A stretch of DNA of 64,000 nucleotides from contig JALHMH010000003.1 of NCBI GenBank assembly GCA_022844165.1, positions 160,001-224,000 on the forward strand, given 5' to 3'. Origin of the DNA: Lysobacterales bacterium (GTDB lineage Bacteria; Pseudomonadota; Gammaproteobacteria; Xanthomonadales; SZUA-5). The notes beneath the pieces were generated by a model that was not told the DNA's origin, did not search any database, and saw only the letters and a program-made list of their open reading frames with translations. Every line of letters begins with the position of its first letter. The first letter of the stretch is position 1. This document shows, one piece after another, positions 11,282 through 56,713 of this stretch. Made by a program: the position numbers and the translations under genes.

Positions 11282-12643
11282 ATGGCCGCTGCGCATATCC
11301 TGGTTGTTGATGACGAGCCCGATATTCGCTCGTTAGTGAAGGAGATCCTGATCGACGAGGGCTATCTTGTCGATACCGCCGAACATGCGGCGGCGGCGCG
11401 GGCGGCGCTGCGCGCACAGCGGCCCGATCTGGTCCTGCTCGACGTCTGGATGCCCGACACCGACGGCATCAGCCTGCTGCGTGAGTGGGCGCAAAGCGGT
11501 CGCGATCCGTTGGCGGTGGTCATGATGAGCGGCCATGGCACGATCGAAACGGCGGTGGAGGCGACGCGCCTTGGCGCTTACGATTTCATCGAGAAGCCGA
11601 TTTCGCTGGCCAAGCTGTTGCTCACGGTCGAACGGGCGCTGGAAACGACGCGTCTCAAACAAGAGAACGAAGGGCTTCGGCGGCGCATTCCCGATGCGAT
11701 CGAACCGATCGGTTCCTCGCGCGCGTTGATCGATTTGAAAGCGCAGTTGGAGCGTGCGGCCAACGTGGATGCCAGCGTGTTGCTCGAGGGTGAGCCTGGC
11801 ACCGGCAAACAACTGCTGGCGCGTTATCTGCACGAACGATCGTCGCGCCGCAGTGGTCCGTTCGTTGTCGTTTCCGGAGCGGCTTTAATGAAGCCTGACG
11901 CGGCCCGCGATCTGTTCGGCAGCGAGGAAAACGGCGAGGCGCGGTACGGGTTGCTGGAGCAGGCGCAGGGCGGCACTTTGTATCTCGATGAAATCGGTGG
12001 CCTGAGTGCAACCTTACAGTCGCGACTGGCGGCGGCACTGCATGCACGACAATTCGCGCGTGTGGATGGTCACACGGCGGTGAAGCTCGAAGCGCGCATT
12101 GTCGCGGGGACTGCAAAGAGCCTGAGCCAGGAGGTTGCGGAAGGACGATTCGACGAAGCATTGATGTACGAGTTGCGTGTTTTGCCCCTGCGCGTCCCAT
12201 CGCTACGCGAACGTCCGGAGGACATACCCGATTTGCTGCGGTGGTTTGCCGAAACCTACGCGGATCGCGATCAGTTGCCGTACCGCCGTTTCACAGTGGC
12301 CGCGCAGAATCGGTTGCGCCAATATGCCTGGCCCGGCAACGTGCGTGAGCTATCGAACCTCGTCCAGCGCCTTTTGATTTTAGGGCAGGGCGACGAGGCC
12401 GATCTGTCCGAAATCGAAGCTGCGCTCGGGCCGCCGCGCAGCATTAAGAACGATGCGCCAGCGCTCGATCTGGGTTTGCCGCTGCGCGAAGCGCGCGAAC
12501 AATTCGAGCGCGAGTATCTGATGCATCAGTTGAAAATGGCCGGCGGCAGCGTTGGCAAACTGGCCAAAGCCGTGGGCCTCGAACGTACGCACTTGTATCG
12601 CAAGCTGCGGTCACTGGGTGTGGAATTGAAAGATGGCGATTGA
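11282..12643 (+). CDS. NtrC-family response regulator, NtrX-like (REC-AAA+-HTH)
   Basis: VVDDE, LLDVWMP, GEPGTGK, LYLDEIG, WPGNVREL, GLERTHLYRKL. The GAFTGA loop is missing, and the gene lies next to trkA as ntrX often does. Confidence 0.85.
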   Translation: MAAAHILVVDDEPDIRSLVKEILIDEGYLVDTAEHAAAARAALRAQRPDLVLLDVWMPDTDGISLLREWAQSGRDPLAVVMMSGHGTIETAVEATRLGAYDFIEKPISLAKLLLTVERALETTRLKQENEGLRRRIPDAIEPIGSSRALIDLKAQLERAANVDASVLLEGEPGTGKQLLARYLHERSSRRSGPFVVVSGAALMKPDAARDLFGSEENGEARYGLLEQAQGGTLYLDEIGGLSATLQSRLAAALHARQFARVDGHTAVKLEARIVAGTAKSLSQEVAEGRFDEALMYELRVLPLRVPSLRERPEDIPDLLRWFAETYADRDQLPYRRFTVAAQNRLRQYAWPGNVRELSNLVQRLLILGQGDEADLSEIEAALGPPRSIKNDAPALDLGLPLREAREQFEREYLMHQLKMAGGSVGKLAKAVGLERTHLYRKLRSLGVELKDGD

Positions 12644-12767
12644 GAAGCGCTTCGCGGGGAACGGCGGCCCGCCGTCCTGGGCACGGGTACGCAGTGCGCT
12701 GTGCACCGCCCGTTTCTTCCACGGTGACGTAATCGATTCAGCACCCTCCGCCAGGTCCGCCAGATGA
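12633..12767 (+). CDS. Putative 44-aa bridge mini-ORF between the regulator and trkA
   Basis: ATG 12633 lies within the last 11 nt of the upstream gene. TGA 12765-12767 overlaps the trkA ATG (ATGA). Contains degenerate GGGCACGG. Confidence 0.35.
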   Translation: MAIEKRFAGNGGPPSWARVRSALCTARFFHGDVIDSAPSARSAR

Positions 12768-14137
12768 ACATCTTGATCCTTGGCGCCGGCCAGGTCGGCA
12801 CATCAGTCGCCGCCGCGTTGGCGCGCGAGTCCAACGACATCACGGTGGTCGATACCGACGCGGAGCGGCTGCGGGATCTGGCCGAAAAACTCGACTTGCG
12901 CGTCGTCCAGGGTTTCGCTGCGCACCCCAGCGTGCTGGCACGCGCTGGTGCGGATGATGCCGATGCGATCATTGCTGTGACCTCGTCGGATGAGGTCAAC
13001 ATGATTGCCTGCGAAGTTGCGGCCACGTTGTACAAGACGCCGATGAAAATCGCCCGGGTGCGTGCGCTCGAATATCTCAAGCATCCTGAGTTGTTCGCGC
13101 GTGGGCATGTGTCGATCGACCATTTGATCAGCCCTAGTCAGCGTGTCTGCGATTACATCGAACGCCTGATTCAATACCCTGGCGCGTTGCAAGTGCTCGA
13201 TTTCGCCGACGGCCGCGCGCAACTGATCGCGCTGCGCGCCGATCAGGCCGGAGCGCTCGTCGGCCATCAAATCCGCGATCTGGCGATGCATTTGCCGGCC
13301 GGCAGCGCGGTGCGCATTGCGGCGATCTTTCGCGACAAACGTTCGGTACCGGTCGACGGCGACACGGTGATCGAACGCGGCGATGAGGTGTTCTTTCTCG
13401 CCGATCGCAAGAACATCCGCGCGATGATGGCGGAACTCACGCGTATCGAACGGCCGGCAAAACGCGTGATGATCGCCGGCGGCGGCAATATTGGCCTGGA
13501 TCTCGCACGGCAACTCGAATCGCGTTACAACGTCAAAATCGTCGAGCGCGGCCGCGACCGGGCGCGGATCATCGCCGAGCAGTTGGAGAGCGCGATTGTG
13601 CTCACCGGCGATTGCGCCGATGAGGACTTGTTGCGCGAAGAGAACATCGATCAAACCGATGTGTTCTGTTCGCTGACCAACGACGATGAAGCGAATATCT
13701 TGTCCGCGATGCTGGCCAAGCGCCTTGGTGCGCGCCGCGTGATTTCCTTGATCAATCGGCCCGCATACGCGGAGCTGGTCGAAAGCGGCATGGTCGACAC
13801 CGCAGTCTCGCCGCAGCAAATCACGCTCGGCGCCTTGCTCTCGTATGTGCGCAAGGGCAATCTGGTGCGCGTGCACAGTCTGCGCGGCGGCGCTGCAGAA
13901 GCCTTCGAGGCAGTGGCTACCGGTTCGAGCGGGACCTCACGTCTGGTGGGAAAGAGCATCGAACAAATTCCGTTGCCGTCAGGTGCGACGATTGCCGGCA
14001 TCGTGCGCGGCGAACGCGTGCTCGCGGCGCATCACGACACCGTCATCGAAACCGATGACCACGTGATTTTGTTCCTCTCGGATAAGCGCGAGCTGCGGCG
14101 CGTCGAATTGCTGTTCCGGGCGGGAGCACTGACGTGA
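12764..14137 (+). CDS. trkA: Trk system K+ uptake NAD-binding subunit
   Basis: Two RCK domains (ILGAGQVG; IAGGGNIG), LIQYPGALQVLDFA; 457 aa. Confidence 0.95.
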   Translation: MNILILGAGQVGTSVAAALARESNDITVVDTDAERLRDLAEKLDLRVVQGFAAHPSVLARAGADDADAIIAVTSSDEVNMIACEVAATLYKTPMKIARVRALEYLKHPELFARGHVSIDHLISPSQRVCDYIERLIQYPGALQVLDFADGRAQLIALRADQAGALVGHQIRDLAMHLPAGSAVRIAAIFRDKRSVPVDGDTVIERGDEVFFLADRKNIRAMMAELTRIERPAKRVMIAGGGNIGLDLARQLESRYNVKIVERGRDRARIIAEQLESAIVLTGDCADEDLLREENIDQTDVFCSLTNDDEANILSAMLAKRLGARRVISLINRPAYAELVESGMVDTAVSPQQITLGALLSYVRKGNLVRVHSLRGGAAEAFEAVATGSSGTSRLVGKSIEQIPLPSGATIAGIVRGERVLAAHHDTVIETDDHVILFLSDKRELRRVELLFRAGALT

Positions 14138-14153
14138 GCGGGGGGATGTGGAG

Positions 14154-14311
14154 CGGGGCACGGGGCGCGGGGCACGGGGCACGGGGAGCGGGAAAGTTGT
14201 TGTCCGTTGCGAGTAGCCCTGGAGTTCAGCCCAAGAATTGCAGCGCCTGGCCCGCACCCCGTGCCCCGTGCCCCGTGCCCCGTGCCCCGTGCCGCGCACC
14301 CCCCCGTGCCC
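14154..14311. repeat. Inverted heptamer tandem arrays (GGGGCAC)n ... (GTGCCCC)n around a ~60-bp core
   Basis: Left arm CGGGGCACGGGGCGCGGGGCACGGGGCACGGGG; right arm CCCCGTGCCCCGTGCCCCGTGCCCCGTGCCCCGTG. Confidence 0.9.
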
Positions 14312-14335
14312 AGTGCCGCGCTCTCGAGGACTCCT

Positions 14336-15811
14336 ATGCCCGCTGAGCACGGCAGCAGCGTCGCGCGCTGGGCCACGGCGCTGCGCGCGATCGGAAATGT
14401 GCAACTGATCGTTGGCCTGACGCTGATTCCCTCGATACTGATTGCATGGTGGGATGGCGATAACTCGGCACTGCCGTTCATCGAGGCGGCGCTGGCGATG
14501 TTTGCTTTGGGCACGGCGCTGATCGTGTTTACCCGCGGCCGACGCGCAGAGCTGCGATTGCGCGATGGGTTCCTGGTGGTGTCGTCCGTTTGGATTATCT
14601 CGGCCTTATTGACACCCTTGCCGTTGATGCTCGGGCCGCCGCATCTGTCCTACACGGACGCGGTATTCGAAGTTGTGTCCGGGTTGACGACCACCGGCGC
14701 TACGGTCATCGTTGGTCTCGATCAATTGCCGCGCAGCGTATTGTTTTATCGCCAGTCGCTGCAGTTCCTGGGCGGCATGGGCATTGTGCTGCTGGCTGTG
14801 GCGATTTTGCCCACGCTGCGCATCGGCGGTTCGCAGTTGACCAAGGGCGAGACCAGTGGTCCCAATAAAGACGCCAAGCTGACGCCGCGCATCCAGAGCA
14901 CAGCCGCGGCGCTGTGGTTGATCTACCTCGGATTGAACGCAACCTGCGCGCTCGCGTATTGGATGGGCGGAATGCAGCCTTTCGATGCGGTGACCTATGC
15001 GTTCTCGACCGTCGCGACAGGAGGATTCGGCAACTACGATGCCAACTTCGGCCAGTTCGACTCGCCTCTCCTGGAGAGCATCGCAATGGTCTTCATCGTG
15101 CTCGGCGGCGCGAATTTCGCGTTGCATTTTATCGCCTGGCAACGGGGTTCGGTCGCCGCCTATTTTCAGGACGTTGAGTTTCGCACGTACGTTCGCTGCC
15201 TGCTGTTTTTTTCGGCCATCGTCGGCACATCGCTATACACCACCGGTACCCACGAGGATTGGGCGACGAGTATCCGGCACGGCGCTTTCCATGTGGTTTC
15301 GGTGATGACAACCACCGGCTTCACGACCACCGGATTCGCCGGTTGGCCGGGCTACCTGGCGGCCTTGATGATATTGATCGCGTTTTTCGGCGCCTGCGCC
15401 GGATCGACCGCTGGCGGGTTGAAAATTGTCCGGATCATGATGACAGCAAAACTGGCTTGGCGAGAAATCCTGCGTGTCATTCACCCGCGTGGCCAGTTTG
15501 TTGTCAAAATCGGACGGCAAGTCGTGGGCGAACCGATTCTGGCGGCGGTGGCCGGTTTCATCACGGTGTACATTGGTAGTTACGTCGTGATCGCGTTGTG
15601 TATAGCGGCCACCGGGGCCGATCTGATCACTGCGTTTTCTGTCGCCGCGGCATCAATCACGAATTTGGGGCCGGCGCTTGGCGCTGCTGCCGCGACGGTG
15701 CGGGACCTGAACGATGTTGCTGTGTGGTTGTGTTCGGCAGCAATGCTGCTCGGGCGCCTTGAGGTGTTTACCCTGTTGGTGCTGCTGACGCCGGCATTTT
15801 GGCGCGAGTGA
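14336..15811 (+). CDS. trkH: Trk system K+ uptake membrane subunit
   Basis: GAGGA RBS before ATG 14336; pore loops SGLTTTGAT, STVATGGF, MTTTGF, TNLGPA; GGMGI, GRLE. Confidence 0.93.
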   Translation: MPAEHGSSVARWATALRAIGNVQLIVGLTLIPSILIAWWDGDNSALPFIEAALAMFALGTALIVFTRGRRAELRLRDGFLVVSSVWIISALLTPLPLMLGPPHLSYTDAVFEVVSGLTTTGATVIVGLDQLPRSVLFYRQSLQFLGGMGIVLLAVAILPTLRIGGSQLTKGETSGPNKDAKLTPRIQSTAAALWLIYLGLNATCALAYWMGGMQPFDAVTYAFSTVATGGFGNYDANFGQFDSPLLESIAMVFIVLGGANFALHFIAWQRGSVAAYFQDVEFRTYVRCLLFFSAIVGTSLYTTGTHEDWATSIRHGAFHVVSVMTTTGFTTTGFAGWPGYLAALMILIAFFGACAGSTAGGLKIVRIMMTAKLAWREILRVIHPRGQFVVKIGRQVVGEPILAAVAGFITVYIGSYVVIALCIAATGADLITAFSVAAASITNLGPALGAAAATVRDLNDVAVWLCSAAMLLGRLEVFTLLVLLTPAFWRE

Positions 15812-15817
15812 GGCGGA

Positions 15818-16945
15818 CTAGCGCAGATCCGCCAGTTCCATCTCAATCAAGCCGCGATCCGGTGCATTGGGTGCCAGTTCCAGGTAACGCCGGAGCGCTT
15901 TCGCGGCGCTCGCAGAATCGCCCAGTTTGACCAGCACCAATCCCAGACCCCGCCACGAACGCGCAGGCGCGTTCGGATCACCCAGCGATGTTTCGTAGTG
16001 TCTTCTTGCCAGCGCCAAATCGCCTTCCCGTGCACGGCGGCGATACATCTCGCCAGTTGCATATTCGATCTCCGCGGGCGCAAACGGCAGTCCTCGCAAG
16101 CGCGCTAATAACACCTGCGTTTGTCCGTAATGGCGACGCCCCACTTCGTCTTCCAGCCAATCCAGGCGATGCGGCGCGATGACCGAATGGAATGCTTCCG
16201 CGCGCGTTTCGCCGCCGCGGGTGGCGGCCTTCTTCAGCCGTTCGGCGCGTTGTGCGCTCGGCGGATGTGTGGCAAAAATACCGGACGAAAGTTTCCGCTC
16301 GCGCGCCTGCTCTTCGCGCCAGATGTCGGCCCATGATTGCCCGGCGCGATGCGTGTCGTAACCTAACTCGGCGAGGCGCTTGAGGCCGTAGTCGTCTGCC
16401 GCGCGCTCCTGATCGCGCGAAAAGGCGAAGGCCGGCGCCAAGGCACCTAACCCGGCGACGGTCGCGAGCGCGGAGCCGCCGACAGCGCCGCCGACAACCT
16501 GCAGGGCAATCGACGCATTTGCCGAAGACTTCATCTGTCGCCATCGCGTCAGTGAATCGCGCGACAACAAATGGCTCATTTCGTGGCCGAGCACGAACAG
16601 CAGTTGCGCTTCGTCCTCCATGCGCAACAGCAAACCCGTGAACACCACCATGGCGCCGTTAGGCGACATCAGCGCGTTGAAGTACGGCTCGCGGATCAGA
16701 TAGATGCGCACGTCTGCGCAGCGCTGTGCGTCGATCTTGCAAAGGAGGTCGCGAAGATAGGCATCCAACACCGGGTCGCGCAGCCGCGCGGCACGTGCAG
16801 CGATGCGTTCTTCGAACGCGTCTGCCTGATGCAGCAGTCCTGCTTCATCGGCGTCAGGCGTGGCGTATAGAGCGGTGGAACTCAGGTACAGCCACAACAC
16901 CAGCAGGCGCGCAGCGCGAGCCGCGCTATTCGCGCTGTTGCTCAC
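15818..16945 (-). CDS. M48-family metalloprotease with C-terminal TPR
   Basis: FNA..PNG.MVVFTGLL, LGHEMSH (HExxH), FSRDQERAAD, ATHP; TPR-like C-terminus. Confidence 0.88.
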   Translation of the reverse strand: MSNSANSAARAARLLVLWLYLSSTALYATPDADEAGLLHQADAFEERIAARAARLRDPVLDAYLRDLLCKIDAQRCADVRIYLIREPYFNALMSPNGAMVVFTGLLLRMEDEAQLLFVLGHEMSHLLSRDSLTRWRQMKSSANASIALQVVGGAVGGSALATVAGLGALAPAFAFSRDQERAADDYGLKRLAELGYDTHRAGQSWADIWREEQARERKLSSGIFATHPPSAQRAERLKKAATRGGETRAEAFHSVIAPHRLDWLEDEVGRRHYGQTQVLLARLRGLPFAPAEIEYATGEMYRRRAREGDLALARRHYETSLGDPNAPARSWRGLGLVLVKLGDSASAAKALRRYLELAPNAPDRGLIEMELADLR

Positions 16946-17631
16946 AGCGGCGCGCCAGCGAGCAGCAACTCAATCGACTCCCGCGCTTTGTCCAACGCGC
17001 GCAGATCGCCGCGCTCGGAGGCGAGAACATTGAACCAGACGATCGCGCCGCTATCGAGATCGACCAGCGACGCAAAACCGACTTGCTGACCGAGCGATAC
17101 GCCAACGCCCACCAGTGCGAGCGCCATCATCGCCTTGCGACCATCGGTTGCATACGAATCGCGCAAGTAAACGAAGAGGCCGTAGCGGGCGCTGGCATCG
17201 AGTGCTCGGGCGCCGCTCCCGAGCGTCCAATCGAAACCGGTCTTGTGCGCTAACTTGCCGGTGCCAAGGCCATGCAGCATCACGCTGTAGCCAACCATTT
17301 CATGCAGTAGCGTGAGCTGCCGCGCACGTTCTGGATCGCCAAGTGCCTGAAAGTTGTCGATCGTCCGCGCTTTGGCGCCGCGCTGCTTCAAGGCTTGCTC
17401 AAGCGCGGTCCGGACGTGAGCTTCCGCTGCCAGCGTCCAATCGGCGCGAACCTCCTGCAGCCCGGAAGCGAGCAAAGACGACAGTTCGACATCCGGCGGC
17501 AGAATCACAATCTCTGCACCGCGGCCCAGCTGGGCGTCTTCCGCCACGCCGCTGGCGCGCTCGTTGCGCGTCACCGCACAGGCGTTCAACAGCAGAGCGA
17601 TCAACAAAAGGCGACAACGGATCCTGGTCAT
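16942..17631 (-). CDS. Hypothetical lipoprotein
   Basis: Lipobox LLNAC; C-terminal ASLVDLDSGAIVWFN; start/stop overlaps with both neighbours. Confidence 0.7.
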   Translation of the reverse strand: MTRIRCRLLLIALLLNACAVTRNERASGVAEDAQLGRGAEIVILPPDVELSSLLASGLQEVRADWTLAAEAHVRTALEQALKQRGAKARTIDNFQALGDPERARQLTLLHEMVGYSVMLHGLGTGKLAHKTGFDWTLGSGARALDASARYGLFVYLRDSYATDGRKAMMALALVGVGVSLGQQVGFASLVDLDSGAIVWFNVLASERGDLRALDKARESIELLLAGAPL

Positions 17632-18230
17632 GCTCGGTGACGCTCACGAAGTACACCGATCACATCATCCAGCGACAGGCCGCGTGCCTGCAACAGCACC
17701 AGTAGATGAAACAGAAGATCGGCGGATTCACCGAGCAGTTCCCGGTCCGACTGGGCGACGCCAGCGAGTGCGGTTTCGACCCCTTCTTCGCCGACCTTTT
17801 GCGCGATTTTATGCAGGCCACGTTCGAACAGTTTGGTGGTGTACGAGCCTTCTGGGCGCTGCTTGTCGCGTTCGGCCACCAGGCGCATCAGCGCGCCGAG
17901 AAACGCCAGTGGCGGACCGGGAAAGTCGCCGAAACACGTCGTCGTCCCGGTATGGCAGGTGGGCCCGTGTGGACGCGCATGGATTAGAATGGTGTCACCG
18001 TCGCAGTCCAGGTAAGCGTCGATCAACTCCAATACATTGCCGCTGGTTTCGCCCTTCGTCCAAAGCCGTTTCTTGCTGCGCGAGTAGAAGGTCACCTGCC
18101 TGGATTCGAGCGTCGCCGCGAGCGCCGCAGCGTTCATGTAGCCGAGCATCAACACTTGCGCGGTGCTGATGTCCTGCACCACCGCTGGCACCAGACCTTT
18201 ACTGAAATCGACTTGCTGAAGCTCAAGCAT
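17628..18230 (-). CDS. hisIE: Bifunctional phosphoribosyl-AMP cyclohydrolase/phosphoribosyl-ATP pyrophosphatase
   Basis: [42 protein letters not shown]. Confidence 0.95.
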
Positions 18231-19065
18231 GCGCGGGCTCCGGTGGCCGAATGGCGTGGCCTCGATCGAGCAAGTACAACTTCAACGCCGGAATCTCCAC
18301 CTCGCCCGAGTGGAACACGCTGGCGGCCAGTGCGCCATCGACATCGGCCAGGGCGAAGGCGTTGGCAAAATGTTCCGGTGCGCCAGCGCCACCGGAGGCG
18401 ATTAACGGCACCTCGCAAATTGCTCGGACCGCCTTGAGTTGCTCCAGATCGTAGCCCCGCCGTTCACCATCGACATTCATGCAGTTGAGGACAATTTCGC
18501 CGGCACCCAGTTCCTGCGCCTGACGCACCCAATCGAGGGTGCGAATTGACAGTTGTTGCGTCTTGTTGGGATCGCCAGTGTACCGGTTGACGCGCCACTC
18601 GCTGTCAATGCGTTTGCTGTCGATGCCGACCACCACGCACTGCGCGCCGAATTCGTCCGACAGTTCCCGGATCAATGCTGGTCGCTCCAGCGCCGGTGTG
18701 TTGACGCTGATTTTGTCGGCGCCGGCGAACAGGACTTCGCGCGCATCCGTGATGCTGCGGATCCCGCCGGCTACGCAAAATGGGATATCGATGGCGCGCG
18801 CCACGCGCTCGACCCAGGTCCGATCGACACTGCGACCTTCCGGGCTGGCAGTGATGTCGTAGAACACCAGCTCATCCGCGCCCGCATCGCGGTAGCGCAT
18901 TGCCAGATCGAGGATGTCGCCCATCACCACGTGGTCGCGAAAACGCACGCCTTTGACAACTTTGCCGTCGCGCACGTCCAGGCACGGGATGAGGCGACGG
19001 GTGAGCTGGGTTGTAGTCATGGTGGATGGTCGTTGGTTGTTGGAGGGCGATATGGACGACGTCAT
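18223..19065 (-). CDS. hisF: Imidazole glycerol phosphate synthase cyclase subunit (alternative start 19020)
   Basis: [40 protein letters not shown]. Confidence 0.95.
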
Positions 19066-19793
19066 TCGGCTTGATGCAGCGCATCGGGCACACCGAATCT
19101 CCCGTCCAACAGCGCCTTGCCGATCACCACCGCCGCTGCGCCCGCCGCACGTAGCGCGCGCAGATCAGCAAGCGCGTGCACACCGCCGGAGGCAACCAAG
19201 TGGGCGTTCGCAAAACGCGCCGCAAGACTGCGATACAGCGCTACATTCGGCCCGCCGAGCATGCCGTCGCGATCGATGTCGGTGACCAGGAAGTGCCTCG
19301 CGCCTTTGGCAAGCCATGCGGCCGTCGTCGATTCGAGATCGGCGGTTTCAAGCTCGGTCCAACCCGCGGTGGCGATCCGGAACACGCCGCCAGCATCGGC
19401 GCGCGCATCGAGCGCCAGCGTAAGGCGCTCGGCGCCGAACTCGTCAAACCATTGCGCGACCAGCTGCGGCTGTTTGACCGCCAGCGAACCGACGACAACG
19501 CGCTCGACACCCGCTTTAAGAAACGCATCGAGTTGCGCGCGTGAGCGCACGCCGCCGCCGGCCTGCACGCGCAGACCGGTGGCCACCATGCGTTCGATCA
19601 CCGCGAGGTTCTCGGTGCTGCCGGTCTTGGCGCCGTCGAGATCGACCACGTGCAACCACTGCGCGCCTTGATCGCGATACGTTCTCGCCAGTTCTACAGG
19701 ATCGTTGGCATAGGTTTGCTGCTGCGCGAAGTCGCCCTGCAGCAAACGCACGACGCGCTGGGCGCGCAAGTCGATGGCCGGGATAATGATCAT
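19062..19793 (-). CDS. hisA: ProFAR isomerase
   Basis: [37 protein letters not shown]. Confidence 0.95.
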
Positions 19794-20389
19794 GACATCG
19801 CCAGAAAGTTGCGGATCAAACGGGCGCCGACGGCTGAAGAGCGCTCGGGGTGAAATTGCGCAGCCATGAAGTTGCCGCGGGCCACAATGGCGCAGAACGG
19901 CTGGCCGTGCTGGCAGGACGCCAGCGTCAACTCGCTGACCGGCGCGGCAAAGCTATGCACGAAATACGCGTACGAACGCTCGTCGAGACCGGCGATCAGC
20001 GGATGCTCGCGCAATATTTGCAGCGCATTCCAACCCATATGCGGCACGCGCGCCGCAGCGCTGGCTTCGAGGCGTCGGATCGTGCCATCGAACAATCCCA
20101 GGCAGCGCGTCTGGCCACCCTCGTCCGACGTTGAGAATAGCAACTGCATGCCCAGACAAACGCCGAGCACCGGCTGCTTGAGCGTTGGCAGACGCGTCGA
20201 CAAACCCAACGCATCCAACTCACGCATCGCCGCGGCAGCGGCGCCGACGCCCGGCAAAATTACCCGCGGCGCACGCGCAATCTCGTTCCAGTCGCGCGTC
20301 ACCGTCACGTGCGCACCCTCGCGCTCGAGCGCGGCGCGCATTGAGCCGATGTTGGCAACGCCGGAGTCGATCAGGGCGACGGGCGTCAT
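19790..20389 (-). CDS. hisH: Imidazole glycerol phosphate synthase glutaminase subunit
   Basis: ILPGVG, LGVCLGMQLL, PHMGWN, YFVHSF, QFHPERS; ATG at 20389. Confidence 0.95.
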   Translation of the reverse strand: MTPVALIDSGVANIGSMRAALEREGAHVTVTRDWNEIARAPRVILPGVGAAAAAMRELDALGLSTRLPTLKQPVLGVCLGMQLLFSTSDEGGQTRCLGLFDGTIRRLEASAAARVPHMGWNALQILREHPLIAGLDERSYAYFVHSFAAPVSELTLASCQHGQPFCAIVARGNFMAAQFHPERSSAVGARLIRNFLAMS

Positions 20390-20574
20390 GGCTGTTGCGC
20401 CGCGTTGTCGAGCAAGAGCGGGACACGGTACACGGGGCACGCAACCGCCCCCCCTGGCATTCGAATCACATCCGTCGCAACCTCGGGCCATGCTCTGTGT
20501 GCCCGGTGCCGCGTGCCGCGTGCCGCGTGCCCCGTGCCCCGTGCCCCGCCTTTCTCGTCCGCCCCGCGCCGCAT
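20386..20574 (-). CDS. Putative 62-aa bridge mini-ORF spanning the heptamer insert between hisB and hisH
   Basis: ATG 20574 overlaps the hisB stop (TGATG). The TGA ending at 20386 overlaps the hisH ATG (ATGA). The 189 nt between are open. Confidence 0.45.
   Translation of the reverse strand: MRRGADEKGGARGTGHAARGTRHRAHRAWPEVATDVIRMPGGAVACPVYRVPLLLDNAAQQP
20419..20548. repeat. Inverted heptamer arrays (GGGGCAC-like / GTGCCSC)n
   Basis: CGGGACACGGTACACGGGGCAC ... GTGCCGCGTGCCGCGTGCCGCGTGCCCCGTGCCCCGTGCCCCG. Confidence 0.88.
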
Positions 20575-21635
20575 CACAACACCCCCTTGGTACTCGGCAC
20601 CGCGTCCCCGCTGCGCCGCGTCGCCACGCGCAGCGTACGCGCGAGCACCTTGAAGCAGGCCTCGACCATGTGATGCGCGTTGTCGCCGCGAACGGTCAGA
20701 TGCAGATTGGCGCCGAGCGTTTCGCACAGCGAGCGGAAAAAGTGCGGCACCAATTCGGTTGGCAGCTCACCAACGCGCTCGCGCGGGAACGTGCCGTCGA
20801 ACACAAAGTATGGACGTCCCGATAAATCGAGCGCTGCGCTGGCCAGGGTTTCGTCCATCGGCAGCGTGAACGCATAACGCTCGATACCACGTTTGTCGCC
20901 GAGCGCAGATTTGAGCGCCTGTCCCAACGCGAGCGCGCTGTCTTCGACCGTGTGGTGCTCGTCGATGTGTAAATCGCCCTTGCAGCTGAGCGCCAGTTTA
21001 AAGCCACCATGGCGCCCGATTTGCTCGAGCATATGGTCGAAAAACCCCAGGCCGGTCTGGACTTCCGGCAGTGCTTCGCGATCCAGATCGATCTCGACGC
21101 GAACGCGCGTTTCCTTGGTGTTGCGCTCAATCACTGCAACCCGCGGCGCATTCAGCAGGCGGTGCGCAATTTCGGGCCAAGGCAATCCCTCCGTGCCGCA
21201 GCGTATGCCGGTCACGCCCATGTTCTTTGCGAATTCCAGATCCGTCAGGCGATCGCCCACCATCGCGCTGCATTTCCGATCCCAGCCAGGATCGGCCAGA
21301 TAGTCGAGCATCATCCCGACCTTGGGTTTGCGCGTATCAGAGGGTTGATGCGCAAAATGCCGATCGATGCGTTCGCTGGCGAAGGTGATCCCTTGCGAGC
21401 GCAGTACATCAAGCATCAGGTTGTGCGCGGGCCAAAAAGTGTCTTCGGGAAAGCTCTCGGTACCAAGACCGTCCTGATTGCTCACGAGCACCAGCTCATA
21501 CCCGGCATCGACGATGCGCTTGAGCGCCGGGATGACCTGTGGCAGAAACTTCAGCTTCTCGATGGCGTCGATCTGCTGATCCGGTGGTTCTTCGATCAGA
21601 CAACCGTCGCGGTCGATGAAAAGGATTTTGCGCAT
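20574..21635 (-). CDS. hisB: Bifunctional histidinol-phosphatase/imidazoleglycerol-phosphate dehydratase
   Basis: FIDRDG, SNQDGLG, RKP; [32 protein letters not shown]. Confidence 0.96.
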
Positions 21636-46020: not shown

Positions 46021-46022
46021 CG

Positions 46023-49430: not shown

Positions 49431-49546
49431 ACGCAGTGGCACGGTACGTTGGGACTGAGCAGACGACAACACGGACACTTTTGGCCGATGTGTGCTCGCC
49501 AGACTCAAGGTAGACTGCGCGGCCATTCGACCGACGGTTTGGTGCG

Positions 49547-50194: not shown

Positions 50195-50374
50195 GCGTGG
50201 CTGGCGGTTCGCGGAGGTGATCGACTGCGCTTCTCCGGTTTCTGCCCGTCGGGTTGGCGCACGTTTTGAGAGACTCGCAGTCTGGCACCTGGATCTTGGA
50301 ATCTTAAGCTGCAACCGTTGCCCACCATCGCTTCTTCCTCCAACGACTAACTGCGCATCACGAATCCTCACCCA

Positions 50375-52102
50375 ATGACCACCGACCTCGAAACCCCCGT
50401 ACTGCCGAGCGGCGCAGAGCTCGATGAGCAGATCTGCCAGTTCCTGCTGCGCAAGGGTCGGCTGAAAGAAACCGATCTGGTTCGTGCGCGGCGCGTATTC
50501 GAGGAGCAGTCGGAAGTACCTCTCGTTGGTTTGCTGACACGTCTGGGGCTGGCTTCAGAGCGTGACGTTGCGGACGCATTGGCTGAGCTGCTGGATATAC
50601 CTCAGGTCACGGCTAAGGACGCGCCGGACGTGCCCCCAGCGGGTGTGCAACTGTCGGTGCGGTTCTTGAAGCAGTTCCACGTGGTGCCGATCGGCGAGTC
50701 GGAATCCTCGATCAGGCTGTTAGTGGCAGATCCACAGGACGACTACGCGCGCGGCGCAGTCCATCTGGCAACCGGCAAGAACATCGAACTGGCGGTCGGT
50801 CTGCGCAGCGAAATAGACGATTTGATCGAGCGATACTACGGCCAGGGCCGCTCGGCGATGGGCACCATCGTGGAGAACCTCGAAGGCGCTGAAGGCGGTG
50901 GCGAGGACGACGTTGAGCACCTGCGCGATCTGGCGTCCGAGGCGCCGGTGATCCGGCTCGTGAATCTGATCATGCAGCGCGCAGTCGAGCAGCGTGCGTC
51001 CGACATCCACATTGAGCCCTTCGAGAATCGGCTTAAAGTTCGTTATCGCATCGATGGCGTGTTGCATGAAGTGGAATCGCCGCCGGCCAGTTCCACAGCC
51101 GCCGTGATCAGCCGCATCAAGATCATGGCCAAGCTCAACATCGCCGAACGCCGGCTGCCGCAGGATGGCCGCATCATGCTGCGTGTGCAGGGCAAGGAGC
51201 TCGATCTACGCGTCTCGACCGTGCCGACGAGCTATGGCGAGAGCGTGGTGATGCGCATCCTGGACCGCGAAAATGTGGTGCTGGACTTCAAGGCGTTGGG
51301 TTTCACCGACGACTTCCTGCCGAAGTTTTTGCACGTACTCGATATGCCCCACGGCATCATGCTGGTCACCGGCCCGACCGGCTCGGGCAAAACCACCACG
51401 TTGTACACTGCGCTGAGCAAGATCAATACGCCGGACGTCAAGATCATCACGGTTGAGGATCCGGTCGAGTACCAGCTTGAAGGCGTCAATCAGATTCAGG
51501 TGAAACCTCAGATTGGCCTCGATTTCGCCGGAGCACTGCGCTCGATTGTGCGTCAGGATCCGGACATCATCATGATCGGCGAAATGCGCGATCTGGAAAC
51601 CGCAAAAATCGCGATCCAGTCTGCGTTGACCGGGCATTTGGTGCTCTCGACCTTGCACACCAACAACGCCGCAGGTGCCGTGACGCGCCTTCTCGATATG
51701 GGCGTCGATGACTATTTGTTGTGCTCCACCGTCAACGGAGTGCTCGCGCAGCGTCTTGTGCGTCGGCTCGATCGCGAGAGCAGCCAACGATATCTGGCGC
51801 TGCCCGAAGTGATTCAGGAGCACAAACTACGCAATTACACACGCCACGATCCGATCTATCTGCACCGTCCGGTGGCCAGCGAACGCAGCGCAACCGGTTA
51901 TTTGGGGCGCACCACGATCATGGAGTTCCTGACCATGACCGATCCCATCCGTCGTCTCGTGATGCAACATGCTGATCACGGCAAAATTGAAGCTTTGGCG
52001 CGGGAAGAAGGCATGCGCACGATGTACGAGGACGGTATGGCCAAAGCGCTCGCCGGCCTGACCACCATCGAAGAAGTGCTTCGCGTGACGCAGGAGTCGT
52101 GA
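50375..52102 (+). CDS. gspE: Type II secretion ATPase
   Basis: ASDIHIEP, RLPQDGR, GPTGSGKTTTLY, TVEDPVEY, RQDPDIIMIGEMRD, TGHLVLSTLH; long XpsE-type N-terminus. Confidence 0.95.
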   Translation: MTTDLETPVLPSGAELDEQICQFLLRKGRLKETDLVRARRVFEEQSEVPLVGLLTRLGLASERDVADALAELLDIPQVTAKDAPDVPPAGVQLSVRFLKQFHVVPIGESESSIRLLVADPQDDYARGAVHLATGKNIELAVGLRSEIDDLIERYYGQGRSAMGTIVENLEGAEGGGEDDVEHLRDLASEAPVIRLVNLIMQRAVEQRASDIHIEPFENRLKVRYRIDGVLHEVESPPASSTAAVISRIKIMAKLNIAERRLPQDGRIMLRVQGKELDLRVSTVPTSYGESVVMRILDRENVVLDFKALGFTDDFLPKFLHVLDMPHGIMLVTGPTGSGKTTTLYTALSKINTPDVKIITVEDPVEYQLEGVNQIQVKPQIGLDFAGALRSIVRQDPDIIMIGEMRDLETAKIAIQSALTGHLVLSTLHTNNAAGAVTRLLDMGVDDYLLCSTVNGVLAQRLVRRLDRESSQRYLALPEVIQEHKLRNYTRHDPIYLHRPVASERSATGYLGRTTIMEFLTMTDPIRRLVMQHADHGKIEALAREEGMRTMYEDGMAKALAGLTTIEEVLRVTQES

Positions 52103-52257
52103 TGGGCGTTCGGTTGACGGCATATCGCAGAGAAACGAGTGCGGGGCACGGGGCACGGGGCACGGGACACGTGTCGTTGCCGGTGAGGCCAATGCCCGTT
52201 CGAGCAAACCCGTGTCCCGCTTTTGCTGCCGAAGAACTCGTCGGAGCGGCCCCCTGA
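52102..52257 (+). CDS. Putative 51-aa bridge mini-ORF spanning the heptamer insert between gspE and gspF
   Basis: TGATG overlaps at both ends (52100-52104 and 52255-52259). The 156-nt frame is open: MGVRLTAYRRETSAGHGARGTGHVS...GAAP. Confidence 0.45.
   Translation: MGVRLTAYRRETSAGHGARGTGHVSLPVRPMPVRANPCPAFAAEELVGAAP
52141..52220. repeat. Heptamer array (GGGGCAC)3 with a short inverted arm
   Basis: GCGGGGCACGGGGCACGGGGCACGGGACACG ... CCCGTGTCCCGC. Confidence 0.85.
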
Positions 52258-53471
52258 TGCCCGCCTTCCGCTTCAAAGCCGTGGCACCGAGCGGCGAGAC
52301 AGTACAAGGTCAGATGGACGCTGCGTCAATCGATGAGGTGATTGCCAAGCTGCACGAGCAGGGCAACCTGCCGCTCGAAGCGGTACCGGCTGATCAGGCG
52401 CAGGGTTTTTCGCTGGCGACGCTGTTTCGTTCCAGCGGCGTCTCACAAAAGGATGTCGCTCAGTTCACGCAACAACTGGCGACTTTGGTCAGCGCGGGCC
52501 TGCCGCTCGATCGTTCGTTGTTGGTACTCGCTGAACTCGCCGAATCACCGCGCCTGAAGCGCTTGGTCGATCGCGTACGCGACGAAGTGCGCGGCGGCAT
52601 TTCGCTTTCGGAAGCGCTTGAGCGCCAGCATGGCGTGTTTTCGCGCCTGTACGTGAACATGGTGCGTGCCGGTGAGTTAGGCGGCACGCTCGATCACACG
52701 TTGACGCGCTTGTCGGAGTACCTGGAACGCAACCAGGAGCTCAAATCCAGTGTGGTATCGGCGCTGATTTATCCTTGCATCCTGTTACTCCTGGCCGGCG
52801 GAGCGTTGATCTTCATGCTGGTGTATGTGATCCCGAATTTCATGCCATTGTTCGAGCAGTTAGGCGGCGATCTGCCGCTGCTGACTCAGATCGTTTTGGC
52901 GATGGCCAGCGTATTGCGCTTCGGTTGGTGGGCGATCATGTTGGTGATTGTCGGCATCGTTGTTTTTTTCCAACGGCAGTTCGCCGATCCGGTCAGTCGC
53001 CTCGTTTGGGACACACGGCTGCTCGATTTGCGCTGGGTTGGCGATTTGCTCACCAAGATCGATACGGCCCGTCTGGCGAGAACCGCTGGCACCCTGCTGA
53101 AGAACGGTGTGCCGCTGCTGTCGGCACTTTCGATCTCAAAGAACGTGCTCGGGAACTCGGCGCTGGCCGAGCAGGTCGAAATCGCCAATAAGGAAGTAAA
53201 GACCGGCGGCGGTCTGGCGCACGCGCTGGCGGCGAGCAAGCGGTTTCCCAGGCTGGCGCTGCAGATGATCTCGGTCGGCGAGGAAACCGGGCATCTCGAC
53301 GACATGTTGCTGCGTGCTGCAGATACCTATGATCGAGAAGTGCGCACCACGATCGACCGGCTGATGGCAGCCTTCGTACCGGTGATGACGATCTTGTTGG
53401 CAGGTTTCATCGCTGTGATCGTCATTTCGATGGTTTCGGCGATTCTGAGTTTGAACGAATTGGTTGGATAA
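52257..53471 (+). CDS. gspF: Type II secretion inner-membrane protein F
   Basis: FTQQLATLVSAGLPL, VRAGELGG, ALIYP, GEETG. Confidence 0.93.
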   Translation: MPAFRFKAVAPSGETVQGQMDAASIDEVIAKLHEQGNLPLEAVPADQAQGFSLATLFRSSGVSQKDVAQFTQQLATLVSAGLPLDRSLLVLAELAESPRLKRLVDRVRDEVRGGISLSEALERQHGVFSRLYVNMVRAGELGGTLDHTLTRLSEYLERNQELKSSVVSALIYPCILLLLAGGALIFMLVYVIPNFMPLFEQLGGDLPLLTQIVLAMASVLRFGWWAIMLVIVGIVVFFQRQFADPVSRLVWDTRLLDLRWVGDLLTKIDTARLARTAGTLLKNGVPLLSALSISKNVLGNSALAEQVEIANKEVKTGGGLAHALAASKRFPRLALQMISVGEETGHLDDMLLRAADTYDREVRTTIDRLMAAFVPVMTILLAGFIAVIVISMVSAILSLNELVG

Positions 53472-53482
53472 CGGAGTGACAC

Positions 53483-53908
53483 ATGAAACGACGCGAATTA
53501 CGCGCGATGGGACAGGGCGGCTTCAGCTTGATCGAAATGCTGCTGGTGCTGGGCATCATCGCGTTCATTGCGACGATGCTCGCCACTAACATCTTCAAGA
53601 ATCAGGAGTCGGCCAATGTGCGCGCCGCGCAAGCGGGCGTTCGAAAGGTCGCCACAGCTGTCGATCAGTTTTATTTGGATTCGGGCACTTTGCCTTCGAA
53701 GATTGAGGATTTGGCCACGCGGCCGGGCAACGCCACTAATTGGAATGGCCCATACATTAACCAGTCGCAAACGCTCGATCCTTGGAAAAACGCTTATGTG
53801 TTGAAGGTGCCCGGTGAAGGCGGACAGCCCTATGCGGTGATTTCGCTCGGAGCCGACAAAGCGCCCGGCGGCAAAGATAACGCTGCGGATATCGACAATA
53901 ACCAGTGA
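53483..53908 (+). CDS. gspG: Major pseudopilin
   Basis: G|FSLIE N-methylation site, WNGPY, DPW..Y, SLGAD..GG...DI. Confidence 0.93.
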   Translation: MKRRELRAMGQGGFSLIEMLLVLGIIAFIATMLATNIFKNQESANVRAAQAGVRKVATAVDQFYLDSGTLPSKIEDLATRPGNATNWNGPYINQSQTLDPWKNAYVLKVPGEGGQPYAVISLGADKAPGGKDNAADIDNNQ

Positions 53909-54543
53909 ACATACCCCCGGATGGGTCGCGCCAAGGCGCGACGCTGTTGTCTGTTCCCCGCAGCGGGCAGTGCGCTGCGGGGAAGCTCACTCGTCCGCAT
54001 TGCGATTTCGCGCCTCATGATTCGGGTGACTCGATCGAAGCGGCGGATCATCGAGGCTTGAGGGAACAGCTGAAAGCGTCGCGCTCTGGCGCGAGCCACG
54101 GACAGTTGGGCTTTACGTTGCTGGAAATGATCGTCGTGCTGCTGATCATCGCCACCGCCGCAACGATGCTGGGCACCTCGATCGTCGGGCGGCTGGACAG
54201 CGTGCGCGTGGCGACCGCTGCGCGCGATGTCAGCTCAGCGCTGCGCCTGACGCGCAGCCAGGCGATTTTGAAGCGCGAAGAGATGTTTCTGGAAATCGAT
54301 CTCGACAAGCGCACGTACACAGCGCCGGGCCGCGAGCCGGTGCAGTTGCCGGATGCGCTGGAATTGAAGCTGCTGACAGCCAGTACCGAAGTCGATAGCG
54401 GTAATGTCGGGCGCATCCGCTTTTTTGCCGACGGCGGCTCAACCGGTGGTCGCGTTACGCTGATGGCCGGCGCGCGCGAGTGGAAGGTCAATGTCTCTTG
54501 GCTGACCGGCGAGATTCAGCTCGACGATGGGCGCAAGGGATGA
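53905..54543 (+). CDS. gspH: Minor pseudopilin H (start uncertain: GTG 53905 or TTG 54058)
   Basis: G|FTLLE at 54109; IRFFADGGSTGG, VSWLTG. Confidence 0.85.
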   Translation: MNIPPDGSRQGATLLSVPRSGQCAAGKLTRPHCDFAPHDSGDSIEAADHRGLREQLKASRSGASHGQLGFTLLEMIVVLLIIATAATMLGTSIVGRLDSVRVATAARDVSSALRLTRSQAILKREEMFLEIDLDKRTYTAPGREPVQLPDALELKLLTASTEVDSGNVGRIRFFADGGSTGGRVTLMAGAREWKVNVSWLTGEIQLDDGRKG

Positions 54544-54953
54544 GCGCCGGGCGCCAACAAGGCGGCTTTACGCTCATCGAAGTGCTGGTGGCGTTTCTGG
54601 TCTTTGTCATGGTCTTTGGCGCAATTCTGGAAGCGCTTGGTATGGCGATGCGCAATACGCGGCGTTCGGCGGAGGTCAGCGAAGCAGCGCTTTGGGCGCA
54701 ATCCAAACTCGATACCGTCGGCAATCTGGAGGAACTCAAAGACGCCAGCGACAGTGGTGAGTTCAACCAACGCTATCGTTGGCAGCTCGATGTTCGCAAA
54801 GTCGAAGTACCGCGCGACGATGGCCTCTCGGCCGATAGTTTTCCAGTCGAGCTGTATCGCGTTGAGCTGATCGTCAATTGGGGTGATGGCCGCCGTCAGA
54901 ACGAGCAGCGTTTTGTAACAATGCGCAGTAAGCTCAAAGAGGGGCAGTTCTGA
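54540..54953 (+). CDS. gspI: Minor pseudopilin I
   Basis: MSAGRQQGG|FTLIEVLVA; ATGA overlap with gspH. Confidence 0.88.
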   Translation: MSAGRQQGGFTLIEVLVAFLVFVMVFGAILEALGMAMRNTRRSAEVSEAALWAQSKLDTVGNLEELKDASDSGEFNQRYRWQLDVRKVEVPRDDGLSADSFPVELYRVELIVNWGDGRRQNEQRFVTMRSKLKEGQF

Positions 54954-55729
54954 TGCATCTCTTACGGGGCACGGGGCGCGGGGCACGGGAAACGGGAGCG
55001 TGCGGGAACGCTGTTCGGGTTTCGGGGGTCGTTGGCACCCAAGCAGGCGACGGCCCGTGCCCCGAACTTCAGGGCAACCAGGCAGGCTTTACCCTCATCG
55101 AACTCCTCGTCGCCATGGCCCTCGTGGCGCTGCTGATGACCATGATCTACGAGGGGCTGCGCAGCGGCCAGCGGGCAGCGGAAACCGGGCAGGCGTTTAT
55201 CGATCGCACCAATCGTGTGCGCATCACGCACGAGTTTTTACGCGGCCAGATCAGTCGCTTGATGCCGCTGCCATATAAGCAGGACAACACCAACGGCAAG
55301 CTTTTTATTTTTGAAGGCGATCAAGAACGGATTCGTTTTGTTGGCCCCATGCCTGGATACCTCGGTTTTGGCGGAGCGTATGTGCAGGAACTGGAGTTGA
55401 TTCGCGATGGCGGCGCCAGGTCTCTGGTTTATCGCTATTGGCTGCTGAACGGGTTCGATGAAAAAGACATCGATACCGCCGAGCCGCCGGTACTTTTGCT
55501 CGAAGGTATCCGGGATGCGAGTTTTCGGTTCAAGGGCATCAACGCGGAAGGCAAAATCAGCGATTGGCGCAGCGATTGGGAAGACTCCCAACTGACTCCG
55601 CTGGTGGTCGAGCTGAAGATGGAAATGACCCGCGAAAGCCGTATGGAATGGCCGATTCTTGAAGTCGTCATGATGGTCGATGGTGGTTCGACGCGTGGTT
55701 TCAACGCTGGGTTTTTCCCGTCTGGTTAA
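54953..55729 (+). CDS. gspJ: Minor pseudopilin J with a long repeat-derived leader
   Basis: G|FTLIE with Gly at codon 45. There is no other in-frame ATG/GTG/TTG between 54953 and the cleavage site. Confidence 0.88.
   Translation: MHLLRGTGRGARETGACGNAVRVSGVVGTQAGDGPCPELQGNQAGFTLIELLVAMALVALLMTMIYEGLRSGQRAAETGQAFIDRTNRVRITHEFLRGQISRLMPLPYKQDNTNGKLFIFEGDQERIRFVGPMPGYLGFGGAYVQELELIRDGGARSLVYRYWLLNGFDEKDIDTAEPPVLLLEGIRDASFRFKGINAEGKISDWRSDWEDSQLTPLVVELKMEMTRESRMEWPILEVVMMVDGGSTRGFNAGFFPSG
54964..55064. repeat. Heptamer array inside the gspJ 5' end
   Basis: ACGGGGCACGGGGCGCGGGGCACGGGAAACGGG ... CCCGTGCCCCG. Confidence 0.8.
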
Positions 55730-56713
55730 ATGGGTCGCGTGTGTTGCAACCGCCTACGTTCAGCCACCAACCCAACCGCCAACCGCCAACCGCCAACCGC
55801 CAACCGCCCTATGCCATCACCCACCCAACAACGCGGAATCGCCCTGGTCATGGTGCTCTGGGTGTGCATTCTGATCGCTGTACTGCTGGCGAGTTTTTCG
55901 ATCAGCGCGCGAATCGAGGCACTGCAGGGCCGCAATTTGCTGGATGCCACCCGCGCCCGTTATGCAGCAGAAGCGGGCCTGCATCGCGCCGCCTATGAGC
56001 TGCGCGGCAATAATCCGGAAACGCGCTGGGTAGCGGATGGGCGCCCGTATGAGATCGAATTTGAAGGCGCCACAGTCACCATCGAGATTTATGATGAAAC
56101 GGGCAAAGTCGACTTGAACGTTGCGGATCCGATCACACTGACTGCGCTGTTCGAGTCTGGGGGCCTCAACCAATTGGATGCCGAAGCGCTGGCTGGTGCG
56201 GTGATGGACTGGCGCGATCCCGATGAGCTGCTCAATCCCAATGGTGCCGAAGCCAACGAGTACGAAGCCGCAGGCCGTTCCTACAAGCCGCGCAATGCGC
56301 CATTCGAAACCGTCTCTGAAGTGCAACAAGTGCTTGGGATGAGTTTCGAATTGTATCGGGAACTTGAACCGCTGATGACCATCTACTCTGGACGCGCGCA
56401 GCCTAATCCGGCATTCGCGTCGCCCCAAGTTCTGGCTCTGTTACCCGGTATGTCGCCTGATCTCGTTGATCTTTTTGTGCAACAGCGCCAAATTCCGGCC
56501 GGACCTAGCGGGCAGGCAGCGCTGCCATTGGTCTTGCCAGACGGCACGCCGGTGGTAGCACAGGGCGGGGGGCTTACGTACACTATCCGGTCCGCTGCAA
56601 CCTTGCCTGGTAGCGCCACCGCCAGCCTCGAAGCAACCATTCGTTTGGGCGCGAGCATGGTGGCGCGGCGACCATTTCGAATTGTTCGTTGGCGCGATGG
56701 CGAGGCTAAATGA
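55730..56713 (+). CDS. gspK: Minor pseudopilin K (alternative start ATG 55811)
   Basis: QRG|IALVMVLW, DETGKVDLN, DWRD.D, N.PF..V.E..QV.GM. Confidence 0.9.
   Translation: MGRVCCNRLRSATNPTANRQPPTANRPMPSPTQQRGIALVMVLWVCILIAVLLASFSISARIEALQGRNLLDATRARYAAEAGLHRAAYELRGNNPETRWVADGRPYEIEFEGATVTIEIYDETGKVDLNVADPITLTALFESGGLNQLDAEALAGAVMDWRDPDELLNPNGAEANEYEAAGRSYKPRNAPFETVSEVQQVLGMSFELYRELEPLMTIYSGRAQPNPAFASPQVLALLPGMSPDLVDLFVQQRQIPAGPSGQAALPLVLPDGTPVVAQGGGLTYTIRSAATLPGSATASLEATIRLGASMVARRPFRIVRWRDGEAK
55767..55808 (+). repeat. (CCAACCG)n heptamer tandem repeat at the gspJ/gspK junction
   Basis: CCAACCCAACCGCCAACCGCCAACCGCCAACCGCCAACCGCC. Confidence 0.85.

Follow-up and report, generated by a model that had tools for sequence, protein, structure and literature searches.

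Open frames that bridge heptamer-repeat inserts from stop codon to start codon at operon junctions of a Lysobacterales bacterium

Between adjacent genes of several operons in a 64,000-nt stretch of a Lysobacterales genome (C3:160001-224000 of the 4.68-Mb genome G000, 60.5% G+C, 59 contigs; "the window" below is this whole stretch), we found inserts built from arrays of a 7-nt repeat, typically GGGGCAC, and across these inserts run short open reading frames (ORFs) that are joined to both neighbors, each opening at the stop codon of the upstream gene and closing at the codon with which the downstream gene starts. We refer to them as relay ORFs. They are far more frequent at array-bearing junctions than in other spacers of the same genome, and in related species the frame is kept across inserts that share neither sequence nor length. 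The explanation that we favor on the basis of these sequence comparisons, and hold to be the probable one, is that, where neighboring genes were once coupled, selection maintains the passage of ribosomes over a hairpin-forming insert.

Results

Relay ORFs are enriched at array-bearing junctions

We counted 45 GGGGCAC-type arrays in the genome; they form 29 clusters, almost all of them located between genes of the same direction. From a crude gene model we drew a set of 19 simple co-directional array-bearing junctions; the upstream side of a repeat-armed gene cassette (described below) and the junctions on contigs C24 and C36, where elements are tandemly multiplied, were excluded. An ORF was scored as a relay when its reading frame differs from that of the upstream gene, its start falls at -14 to +12 nt relative to the final base of the upstream stop codon, and its end falls at -8 to +12 nt relative to the first base of the downstream start codon. 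Relays were present at 14 of the 19 junctions, ftsA-ftsZ, murC-ddl, mraY-ftsW, and ftsL-ftsI among them, with an in-frame fusion at two others and neither arrangement at the remaining three; the end is an exact ATGA in seven relays and a TGATG in one. The automated caller alone returned 12 relays, its errors being a misplaced hisH start and an uncounted GTG two bases after a stop codon. As the null for coupling we used array-free same-strand spacers of 60-320 nt from the same genome (n = 655), of which 59 contain a double-coupled ORF when the model start is used and 78 when any candidate start is accepted (Fisher p 7e-11 and 2e-9, respectively, for the array junctions). The first-pass annotation of this DNA had asked whether double-coupled ORFs exceed chance genome-wide; at 14/19 versus 59/655 they do (p ~1e-10). 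The 9-12% of array-free spacers that are also double-coupled (59-78/655) may include some unrecognised small genes or other relay-bearing inserts.

The frame in which these ORFs lie was then compared with its alternatives. Of the 19 junctions, 13 qualify in the coupled frame; the remaining two sense frames give 2 qualifying cases in 38 (p 9e-7). When slippage was simulated by adding or removing one or two heptamer units in an arm, the relay was kept in 10 of 56 variants, with 21 becoming fused and 25 lost. Over the stretch between the upstream stop and the element's far end, stops are absent from the coupled frame in 18/21 cases, from the third sense frame in 14/21, and from the antisense frames in 45/63. 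The signal rests on the phase in which the frames end and on the sister species.

Frames are conserved across species while inserts are not

The genomes compared are relatives of G000, namely its sister species (G001) and others that include G002 and G003. At hisB-hisH, the relay frame is stop-free in all six inserts (six genomes), compared with 9 of 30 open control frames, the relays running from a retained GTG or ATG on the hisB stop to position +1 or +5 of the hisH ATG; the units of these inserts are GGGGCAC, the octamer GAGGGCAC, CCAGTGG, and GGGCCCA (twice), and one is a non-heptamer insert. Both inserts are open in the relay frame at trkA-trkH (198 and 129 nt), at ftsL-ftsI (190 versus 307 nt, encoding 65 versus 104 aa), and at mraY-ftsW (124 versus 295 nt, 43 versus 100 aa), as is the single insert at murC-ddl (1/1). 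At the junction of a regulator gene with trkA, three of four inserts (four genomes) keep the ORF, which has the same ATG, 10 nt ahead of the stop, as its start and closes in the ATGA of trkA, and at gspE-gspF the frame is open in 3/4, including a 70-nt armless spacer in the sister species. Pooled by hand tally over these seven junctions, relay frames are open in 19/21 cases versus 46/105 for control frames (binomial p ~3e-5 at 0.46), although such p-values overstate the support because the genomes are related and some inserts, for example the two with GGGCCCA, may share descent. The inserts of the sister species are richer in stops: there, the relay or fusion frame is open at six of seven junctions and the other frames in 8 of 35 cases, the relay frame often being the sole open one. 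An in-frame fusion at a pseudopilin junction is also kept in the sister species, with a 221-nt octamer element.

The same comparison bears on whether the mini-ORFs encode functional small proteins, which we regard as barely credible. Their frames are open and are placed where small genes could be co-expressed. Against this, the sister species carries unrelated peptides at the same junctions, differing in length at ftsL-ftsI and mraY-ftsW as given above and replaced at hisB-hisH (62 aa) by a different 241-nt insert. A Pfam search with the four mini-ORF peptides described in the window returned zero family matches, in agreement with the earlier view that these peptides are translated repeat and not conserved proteins.

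The inserts occupy junctions that have stop/start overlaps in relatives

The spacers had been read as insertions at coupled stop/start junctions, and relatives supply the corresponding empty sites, with 4-nt or 1-nt overlaps. The empty hisB-hisH junction has a GTGA overlap in most of 20 relatives' loci, trkA-trkH has ATGA or GTGA, and murC-ddl has ATGA in five of five relatives, the sister species among them. Single genomes provide the overlap for ftsL-ftsI (ATGA in G003), mraY-ftsW (TGATG in G002), and the pseudopilin junction (TAGTG in G003), and in more distant genomes the regulator-trkA junction is either ATGA or a spacer of 9-27 nt. For gspE-gspF, no empty site was found among the relatives compared. 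In two assemblies (G008 and G005), gspE and gspF lie on separate contigs that both end at the junction, which would fit a repeat insert that the assembler could not cross. The ftsA-ftsZ spacer differs by 6 nt in length between this genome and the sister species.

The inserts at a given junction vary from species to species. Where this genome has heptamer elements, those of the sister species are octamer ones (GAGGGCAC), and the units in other relatives are CCAGTGG, GGGCCCA, GGGGCTG, and AGTGAAA, the last of these at gspE-gspF. Five-base duplications that contain the overlap flank the inserts at murC-ddl (GATGA), ftsL-ftsI (CATGA), and gspE-gspF (TGATG). The N-termini of HisH and TrkH differ from the ancestral ones, suggesting that a new start was recruited where the relay ends.

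Evidence that weighs against selection

The flank duplications enter into an alternative account, in which the relays are a by-product of stop-free GC-rich repeats and of target-site duplication of an ATGA or TGATG overlap, leaving frames that are unselected and may not be translated. We consider this unlikely, but several observations speak for it and against selection. The duplications GATGA, CATGA, and TGATG can explain coupled-looking ends without selection, although they cannot explain phase. In this genome it is common for all six frames to be open, and because stops are scarce in GC-rich inserts in every frame, openness alone is weak evidence here. An overlapping start codon is cheap, and it was dropped as evidence, because a TGA stop preceded by any of three of the four bases creates one. 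Several downstream genes have, by sequence reading, their own Shine-Dalgarno-like motif. Downstream starts are computational assignments, taken either as the first ATG beyond the element (the rule) or from alignments with relatives, and are not experimentally determined; the rule put one of them, that of hisH, in the wrong place.

A further set of counts against the reading comes from other genera. In genus g8, where 40 loci gave 27 co-directional junctions, the automated caller scored 3 of 27 as coupled and four as fused, with control frames at 3/54; in a Xanthomonas-like genome with GGGAATC arrays (14 loci, 12 co-directional), none of 12 was coupled and one was fused, the rule-set downstream starts being less certain in both samples. 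The g8 elements have the same GGGGCAC unit, and most of them lie in ordinary intergenic DNA with a stop codon immediately adjacent; across g8 and the Xanthomonas-like genome many elements adjoin a stop codon in this way. Because neither group shows enrichment, the relay is not general to the element class, and the idea that the bridging frame is a property of the element itself is rejected by these counts. The GGGGCAC elements of g8 (L075-L114; G016, G022) also have conserved inner junctions beside both arms, forming an extended inverted repeat, and their G-rich arm usually begins 0-3 nt past the stop codon.

What the by-product account does not predict is the phase. A duplicated overlap would fit the downstream start in about one-third of cases, whereas the fit observed is 14/19 in this genome and 19/21 across relatives; the sister species keeps the relay frame open at 6/7 junctions versus 8/35 for the other frames; and slippage by one unit would break most relays. 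We conclude that selection for an uninterrupted ribosome path probably shaped the junctions of this genus.

Relay ORFs and related junctions in the window

The four mini-ORFs first described in the window were all found in the sequence with the lengths, stop/start overlaps, and positions then reported, and Pfam identifies the neighboring genes as encoding a sigma-54 response regulator, TrkA, TrkH, HisB, HisH, GspE, GspF, and pseudopilins. On the plus strand, the 44-aa relay ORF at 12633..12767 lies between the sigma-54 response regulator gene (11282-12643) and trkA (12764-14137); it begins at an ATG 10 nt before the regulator stop, a detail beyond the first description, and has an ATGA end. 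The spacer that it crosses (12644-12763) contains degenerate heptamers and no hairpin. The 70-aa relay ORF of trkA-trkH (14134..14346, plus strand) has a GTGA start on the trkA stop, and its last base lies 11 nt inside trkH (ATG 14336). The element here consists of a G-arm of (GGGGCAC) x 4.7 at 14154..14186 and a C-arm of (GTGCCCC) x 5.3 at 14257..14293, both on the plus strand and both identified by Tandem Repeats Finder (TRF).

On the minus strand, the 62-aa relay ORF at 20386..20574 connects hisB (20574-21635) to hisH (19790-20389). Its ATG (20574) lies within the TGATG on the hisB stop, with an in-frame GTG 3 nt upstream, and its stop (20388-20386) lies within the ATGA on the hisH ATG (20389). 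In the minus-strand reading, the G-arm has seven units (20499..20548, TRF) and the C-arm is degenerate (20419..20441). The 51-aa relay ORF of gspE-gspF (52102..52257, plus strand), with TGATG at both ends, lies between gspE (50375-52102) and gspF (52257-53471), and its element comprises a G-arm at 52142-52171 and a single C-arm unit at 52212-52218 (TRF).

Two more junctions of like kind in the window carry an insert in frame with the downstream gene. At 54953..55075 (plus strand), the element forms an in-frame 41-aa extension of a pseudopilin leader that begins at an ATG in the TGATG on the upstream pseudopilin's stop, with its G-arm at 54964-54989 and a C-arm unit at 55057-55063; the N-methylation motif of this pseudopilin (Pfam N_methyl) begins only at residue 42. 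The second is an in-frame 81-nt stretch at 55730..55811 (plus strand), read from the window sequence alone, that runs from an ATG directly after a pseudopilin stop (TAA 55727-55729) through an array of (CCAACCG) x 5.3 (55772-55808) to the likely next gsp start. This array is perfect, has an unlike unit, and has no inverted partner.

Arrays, predicted hairpins, and cores

GGGGCAC occurs 22 times in the window, compared with 10.3 +/- 3.0 expected, a count reached in 1 of 100 shuffles, and the tandem arrays at these junctions were recovered by TRF. On the sense strand, an element reads as a G-rich array, a core, and a complementary C-rich array. Inverted 7-nt arrays around a short core are clear at trkA-trkH and hisB-hisH, the gspE-gspF and pseudopilin elements have one C-arm unit remaining each, and the regulator-trkA copy is degenerate. 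The predicted RNA folds have minimum free energies of -144.8 kcal/mol at trkA-trkH (z -7.6, strong), -113.2 kcal/mol at hisB-hisH (z -4.8, strong), -67.4 kcal/mol at gspE-gspF (z -0.8, weak), and -42.8 kcal/mol at regulator-trkA (z +1.5, no hairpin). Of the earlier description, heptamers at all four junctions held, in degenerate form at regulator-trkA, but the long hairpins ascribed to three of them are clear at two.

The cores had been called unrelated to one another, and an all-against-all blastn comparison confirmed this. It yielded chance matches of 8-17 nt only, by which we rejected the cores as copies of one mobile sequence, with two exceptions: C24 carries four copies in tandem, and next to three G-arms there is a separate palindromic family of 76-82 nt. 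The C24 block (C24:53211-54078) lies between two genes of the minus strand and consists of four tandem 237-bp units (79 codons); an 86-bp core, identical in all four, separates the G-arm of each unit from its C-arm. At C36:9729-10060, GGGGCAC units alternate several times with a repeated spacer of ~14 nt and are followed by a single C-arm. The members of the palindromic family (76-82 bp, 87-91% identity) are at C50:9059-9140, C24:60336-60411, and C9:97360-97435, each adjoining a lone G-arm; by eye, a similar palindrome forms the core of the trkA-trkH insert of the sister species. An assignment to MITEs (miniature inverted-repeat transposable elements) fails because element interiors are not conserved; they are mutually unrelated, and no parent transposon was identified. 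A relationship to repetitive extragenic palindromes (REPs), the REPINs, and their REP-associated tyrosine transposases (RAYTs) was also rejected: the genome's only Y1_Tnp gene, of IS200/RAYT type (C48:21393-21728), is flanked by short GC-rich palindromes of its own and by no GGGGCAC array, and a lone GTGCCCC lies ~470 nt downstream.

The stability of the stems raises the alternative that the hairpin itself is functional, either as a site of RNA processing or stability (cleaved by RNase III, in the manner of intervening sequences in rRNA) or as an attenuator that sets product ratios, with the ORFs incidental or modulating. The stems are predicted to be very stable, the architecture is common to cassettes of intervening-sequence type with a PF05635 gene (next section), and most of the Xanthomonas repeats are transcribed according to Rehm et al. 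(PMC4692102). We nevertheless think this improbable, as the frame is kept despite decay of the hairpin at regulator-trkA, at gspE-gspF, and in the sister species' 70-nt armless spacer. A scan of 12000-21000 and 51500-56000 for terminator-like sites (a G+C stem with a sense-strand T run) placed none of 18 sites inside elements, a result that applies to loops of 3-8 nt, the only ones that the scan detects, and with that limit the reading of the elements as intrinsic terminators was rejected.

A related alternative, that the arrays are G-quadruplex regulators as proposed for the Xanthomonas GGGAATC repeats, seems to us very improbable. GGGGCAC units do hold G4 tracts, and arrays of at least four units exist: the trk and his arms have a G-tract of at least three in each unit and at least four units, at the level of sequence only. 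Formation of quadruplexes in vitro was shown for the Xanthomonas repeats (PMC4692102). On the other hand, units without G-runs (CCAGTGG, and AGTGAAA at gspE-gspF) fill the same junctions in other species, and a quadruplex role predicts no constraint on the reading frame.

A PF05635 cassette with the same arms

At C8:10728-11309, (GGGGCAC)n arms 520 nt apart enclose the genome's only PF05635 gene (Pfam E 3e-33), whose product is a four-helix-bundle protein, of the type that belongs to intervening sequences of 23S rRNA. On the upstream side of this cassette, the upstream ORF reads through the G-arm; on the downstream side, the cargo gene has its stop within a TGATG, from which a 43-aa ORF opens and passes through the C-arm to an ATGA on the next gene. 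Of the 30 PF05635 loci examined (this genome and relatives taken together), 24 have inverted 7- or 8-nt arrays on either side, with a unit that differs per locus, and many of the cargo ORFs in relatives read through the arm (a count limited to the position of the cargo stop relative to the C-arm). The suggestion that the window inserts are remnants of a cassette was borne out to the extent that the same arms carry a PF05635 gene once, but the cores show no trace of a cargo gene; tblastn of the cargo protein against the cores found nothing below E 0.4, and at the sequence level the cores were rejected as decayed PF05635 genes. The window inserts are gene-less copies of heptamer-armed hairpin elements that are kin to the PF05635 cassettes, and the elements themselves are of an already known kind and not new.

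Discussion

Operons with overlapping codons need a hand-over of the ribosome, and a hairpin of -113 to -145 kcal/mol placed at the joint should sever it. The pathway that we propose would begin with insertion of an element at or right beside a stop/start overlap within an operon. The upstream stop would still overlap a start codon, which may be the start that the downstream gene once used or a duplicate that arose with the insertion, and since the arms contain no stop codon in any frame, a frame would open there. At once-coupled junctions, only variants with the frame open across the whole insert would persist, and that frame would end on the downstream start (ATGA or TGATG) or within ~10 nt of it. 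A ribosome finishing the upstream gene could then reinitiate and translate through the hairpin, melting the stem and covering the C-rich arm, which might otherwise be a loading site for Rho, before terminating at the next start, where the same or a fresh ribosome would begin the downstream gene. The relay peptide would be a by-product. Where the frame of the insert matches that of the downstream gene, the outcome would be an N-terminal extension, an arrangement seen where a leader or signal peptide is cleaved anyway. Such a filter would act locus by locus, and the survivors would keep the path of the ribosome either as a double-coupled ORF or as an in-frame extension. What the sequences show are the insertions, the statistics on frames, and the keeping of the frame from species to species; translation of the relays, reinitiation at their ends, and the resulting relief of polarity are what we infer from them.

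Relay ORFs, kept in frame and not in sequence, would be a new variant of translational coupling, for which the statistics in this genus are solid. The data suggest a simple and repeated form of evolutionary repair, in which a disposable frame is kept and sequence and length are not. More speculatively, and with the odds in our estimate against it, there may be a general undescribed rule by which heptamer hairpin elements persist in essential operons (the dcw, his, trk, and type II secretion operons) only as translated inserts: landing on a stop/start overlap, they would build a relay, the orphaned start opening a disposable ORF and the downstream gene recruiting a start at its end. If true, this rule may also explain why some "hypothetical" mini-genes have been annotated next to heptamer repeats. 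Were the narrower proposal confirmed, conservation of frame without conservation of sequence would serve as a readout of selection on translation itself, the tolerance of a widespread and unexplained repeat class in essential operons would be explained, and genome annotation would have reason to treat such mini-ORFs as relays and not as proteins. Relays would also provide clean test cases for distinguishing reinitiation from RNA-unfolding models of translational coupling.

Several known systems resemble these elements in part. The palindromic elements of Rickettsia insert in frame in genes, and the STRR sequences of cyanobacteria are heptamer repeats; both are palindromic or heptameric repeats that tolerate translation or sit within operons, and we know of no stop-to-start relay described for either. 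REP/REPIN-RAYT systems and MITEs are likewise dispersed palindromic intergenic elements, but the only Y1_Tnp gene of this genome accompanies another palindrome and no GGGGCAC array, and the interiors of the present elements, unlike those of MITEs, are not conserved. ORF-bearing intervening sequences of 23S rRNA are known. The PF05635 cassettes share with the window copies insertion at gene junctions and, at this genome's PF05635 locus, identical arms, whereas the window copies are gene-less and lie in mRNA spacers rather than in rRNA. In the parts available to us, the literature on heptamer repeats, PF05635, and coupling across palindromic inserts contains no description of relay ORFs over heptamer elements.

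The Xanthomonas GGGAATC arrays are similar in being arrays of a 7-nt unit that often form convergent inverted pairs. Rehm et al. (2015, PMC4692102) report 70-75 convergent pairs, mostly between aligned ORFs and mostly within 50 bp of stop and start codons; the authors propose G-quadruplexes and leave the function of the repeats open, and in the text consulted no word begins with "coupl" and no account is given of frames across the repeats. The unit is GGGAATC there versus GGGGCAC here, and the Xanthomonas-like genome that we scored had a relay at 0/12 junctions. The nearest published mechanism, as a functional analogue only, is that of the short ORFs of integrons, as described in PMC8876359. 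ORF-11, ORF-17, and ORF-18 in attI1 and others within attC relieve stem-loop barriers through termination-reinitiation and raise translation of the next gene. As with the relays, a throw-away ORF passes over a hairpin-forming insertion site and ends at or near the next start, and the sequence of the peptide is unimportant. The integron ORFs start from a Shine-Dalgarno sequence of their own, whereas the relays start on the upstream stop codon; no integron, attC site, or integrase turned up here, although none was searched for. Models of translational coupling invoke either RNA unfolding or reinitiation and scanning (review PMC12548453). In common with the coupled genes treated there, relays have -4 and -1 nt spacings (ATGA and TGATG), here at both ends, and a structure near the downstream start that must be opened by an arriving ribosome. 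They differ from ordinary coupling in that the ribosome would take two serial coupling steps by way of an inserted, non-conserved ORF of 43-104 codons.

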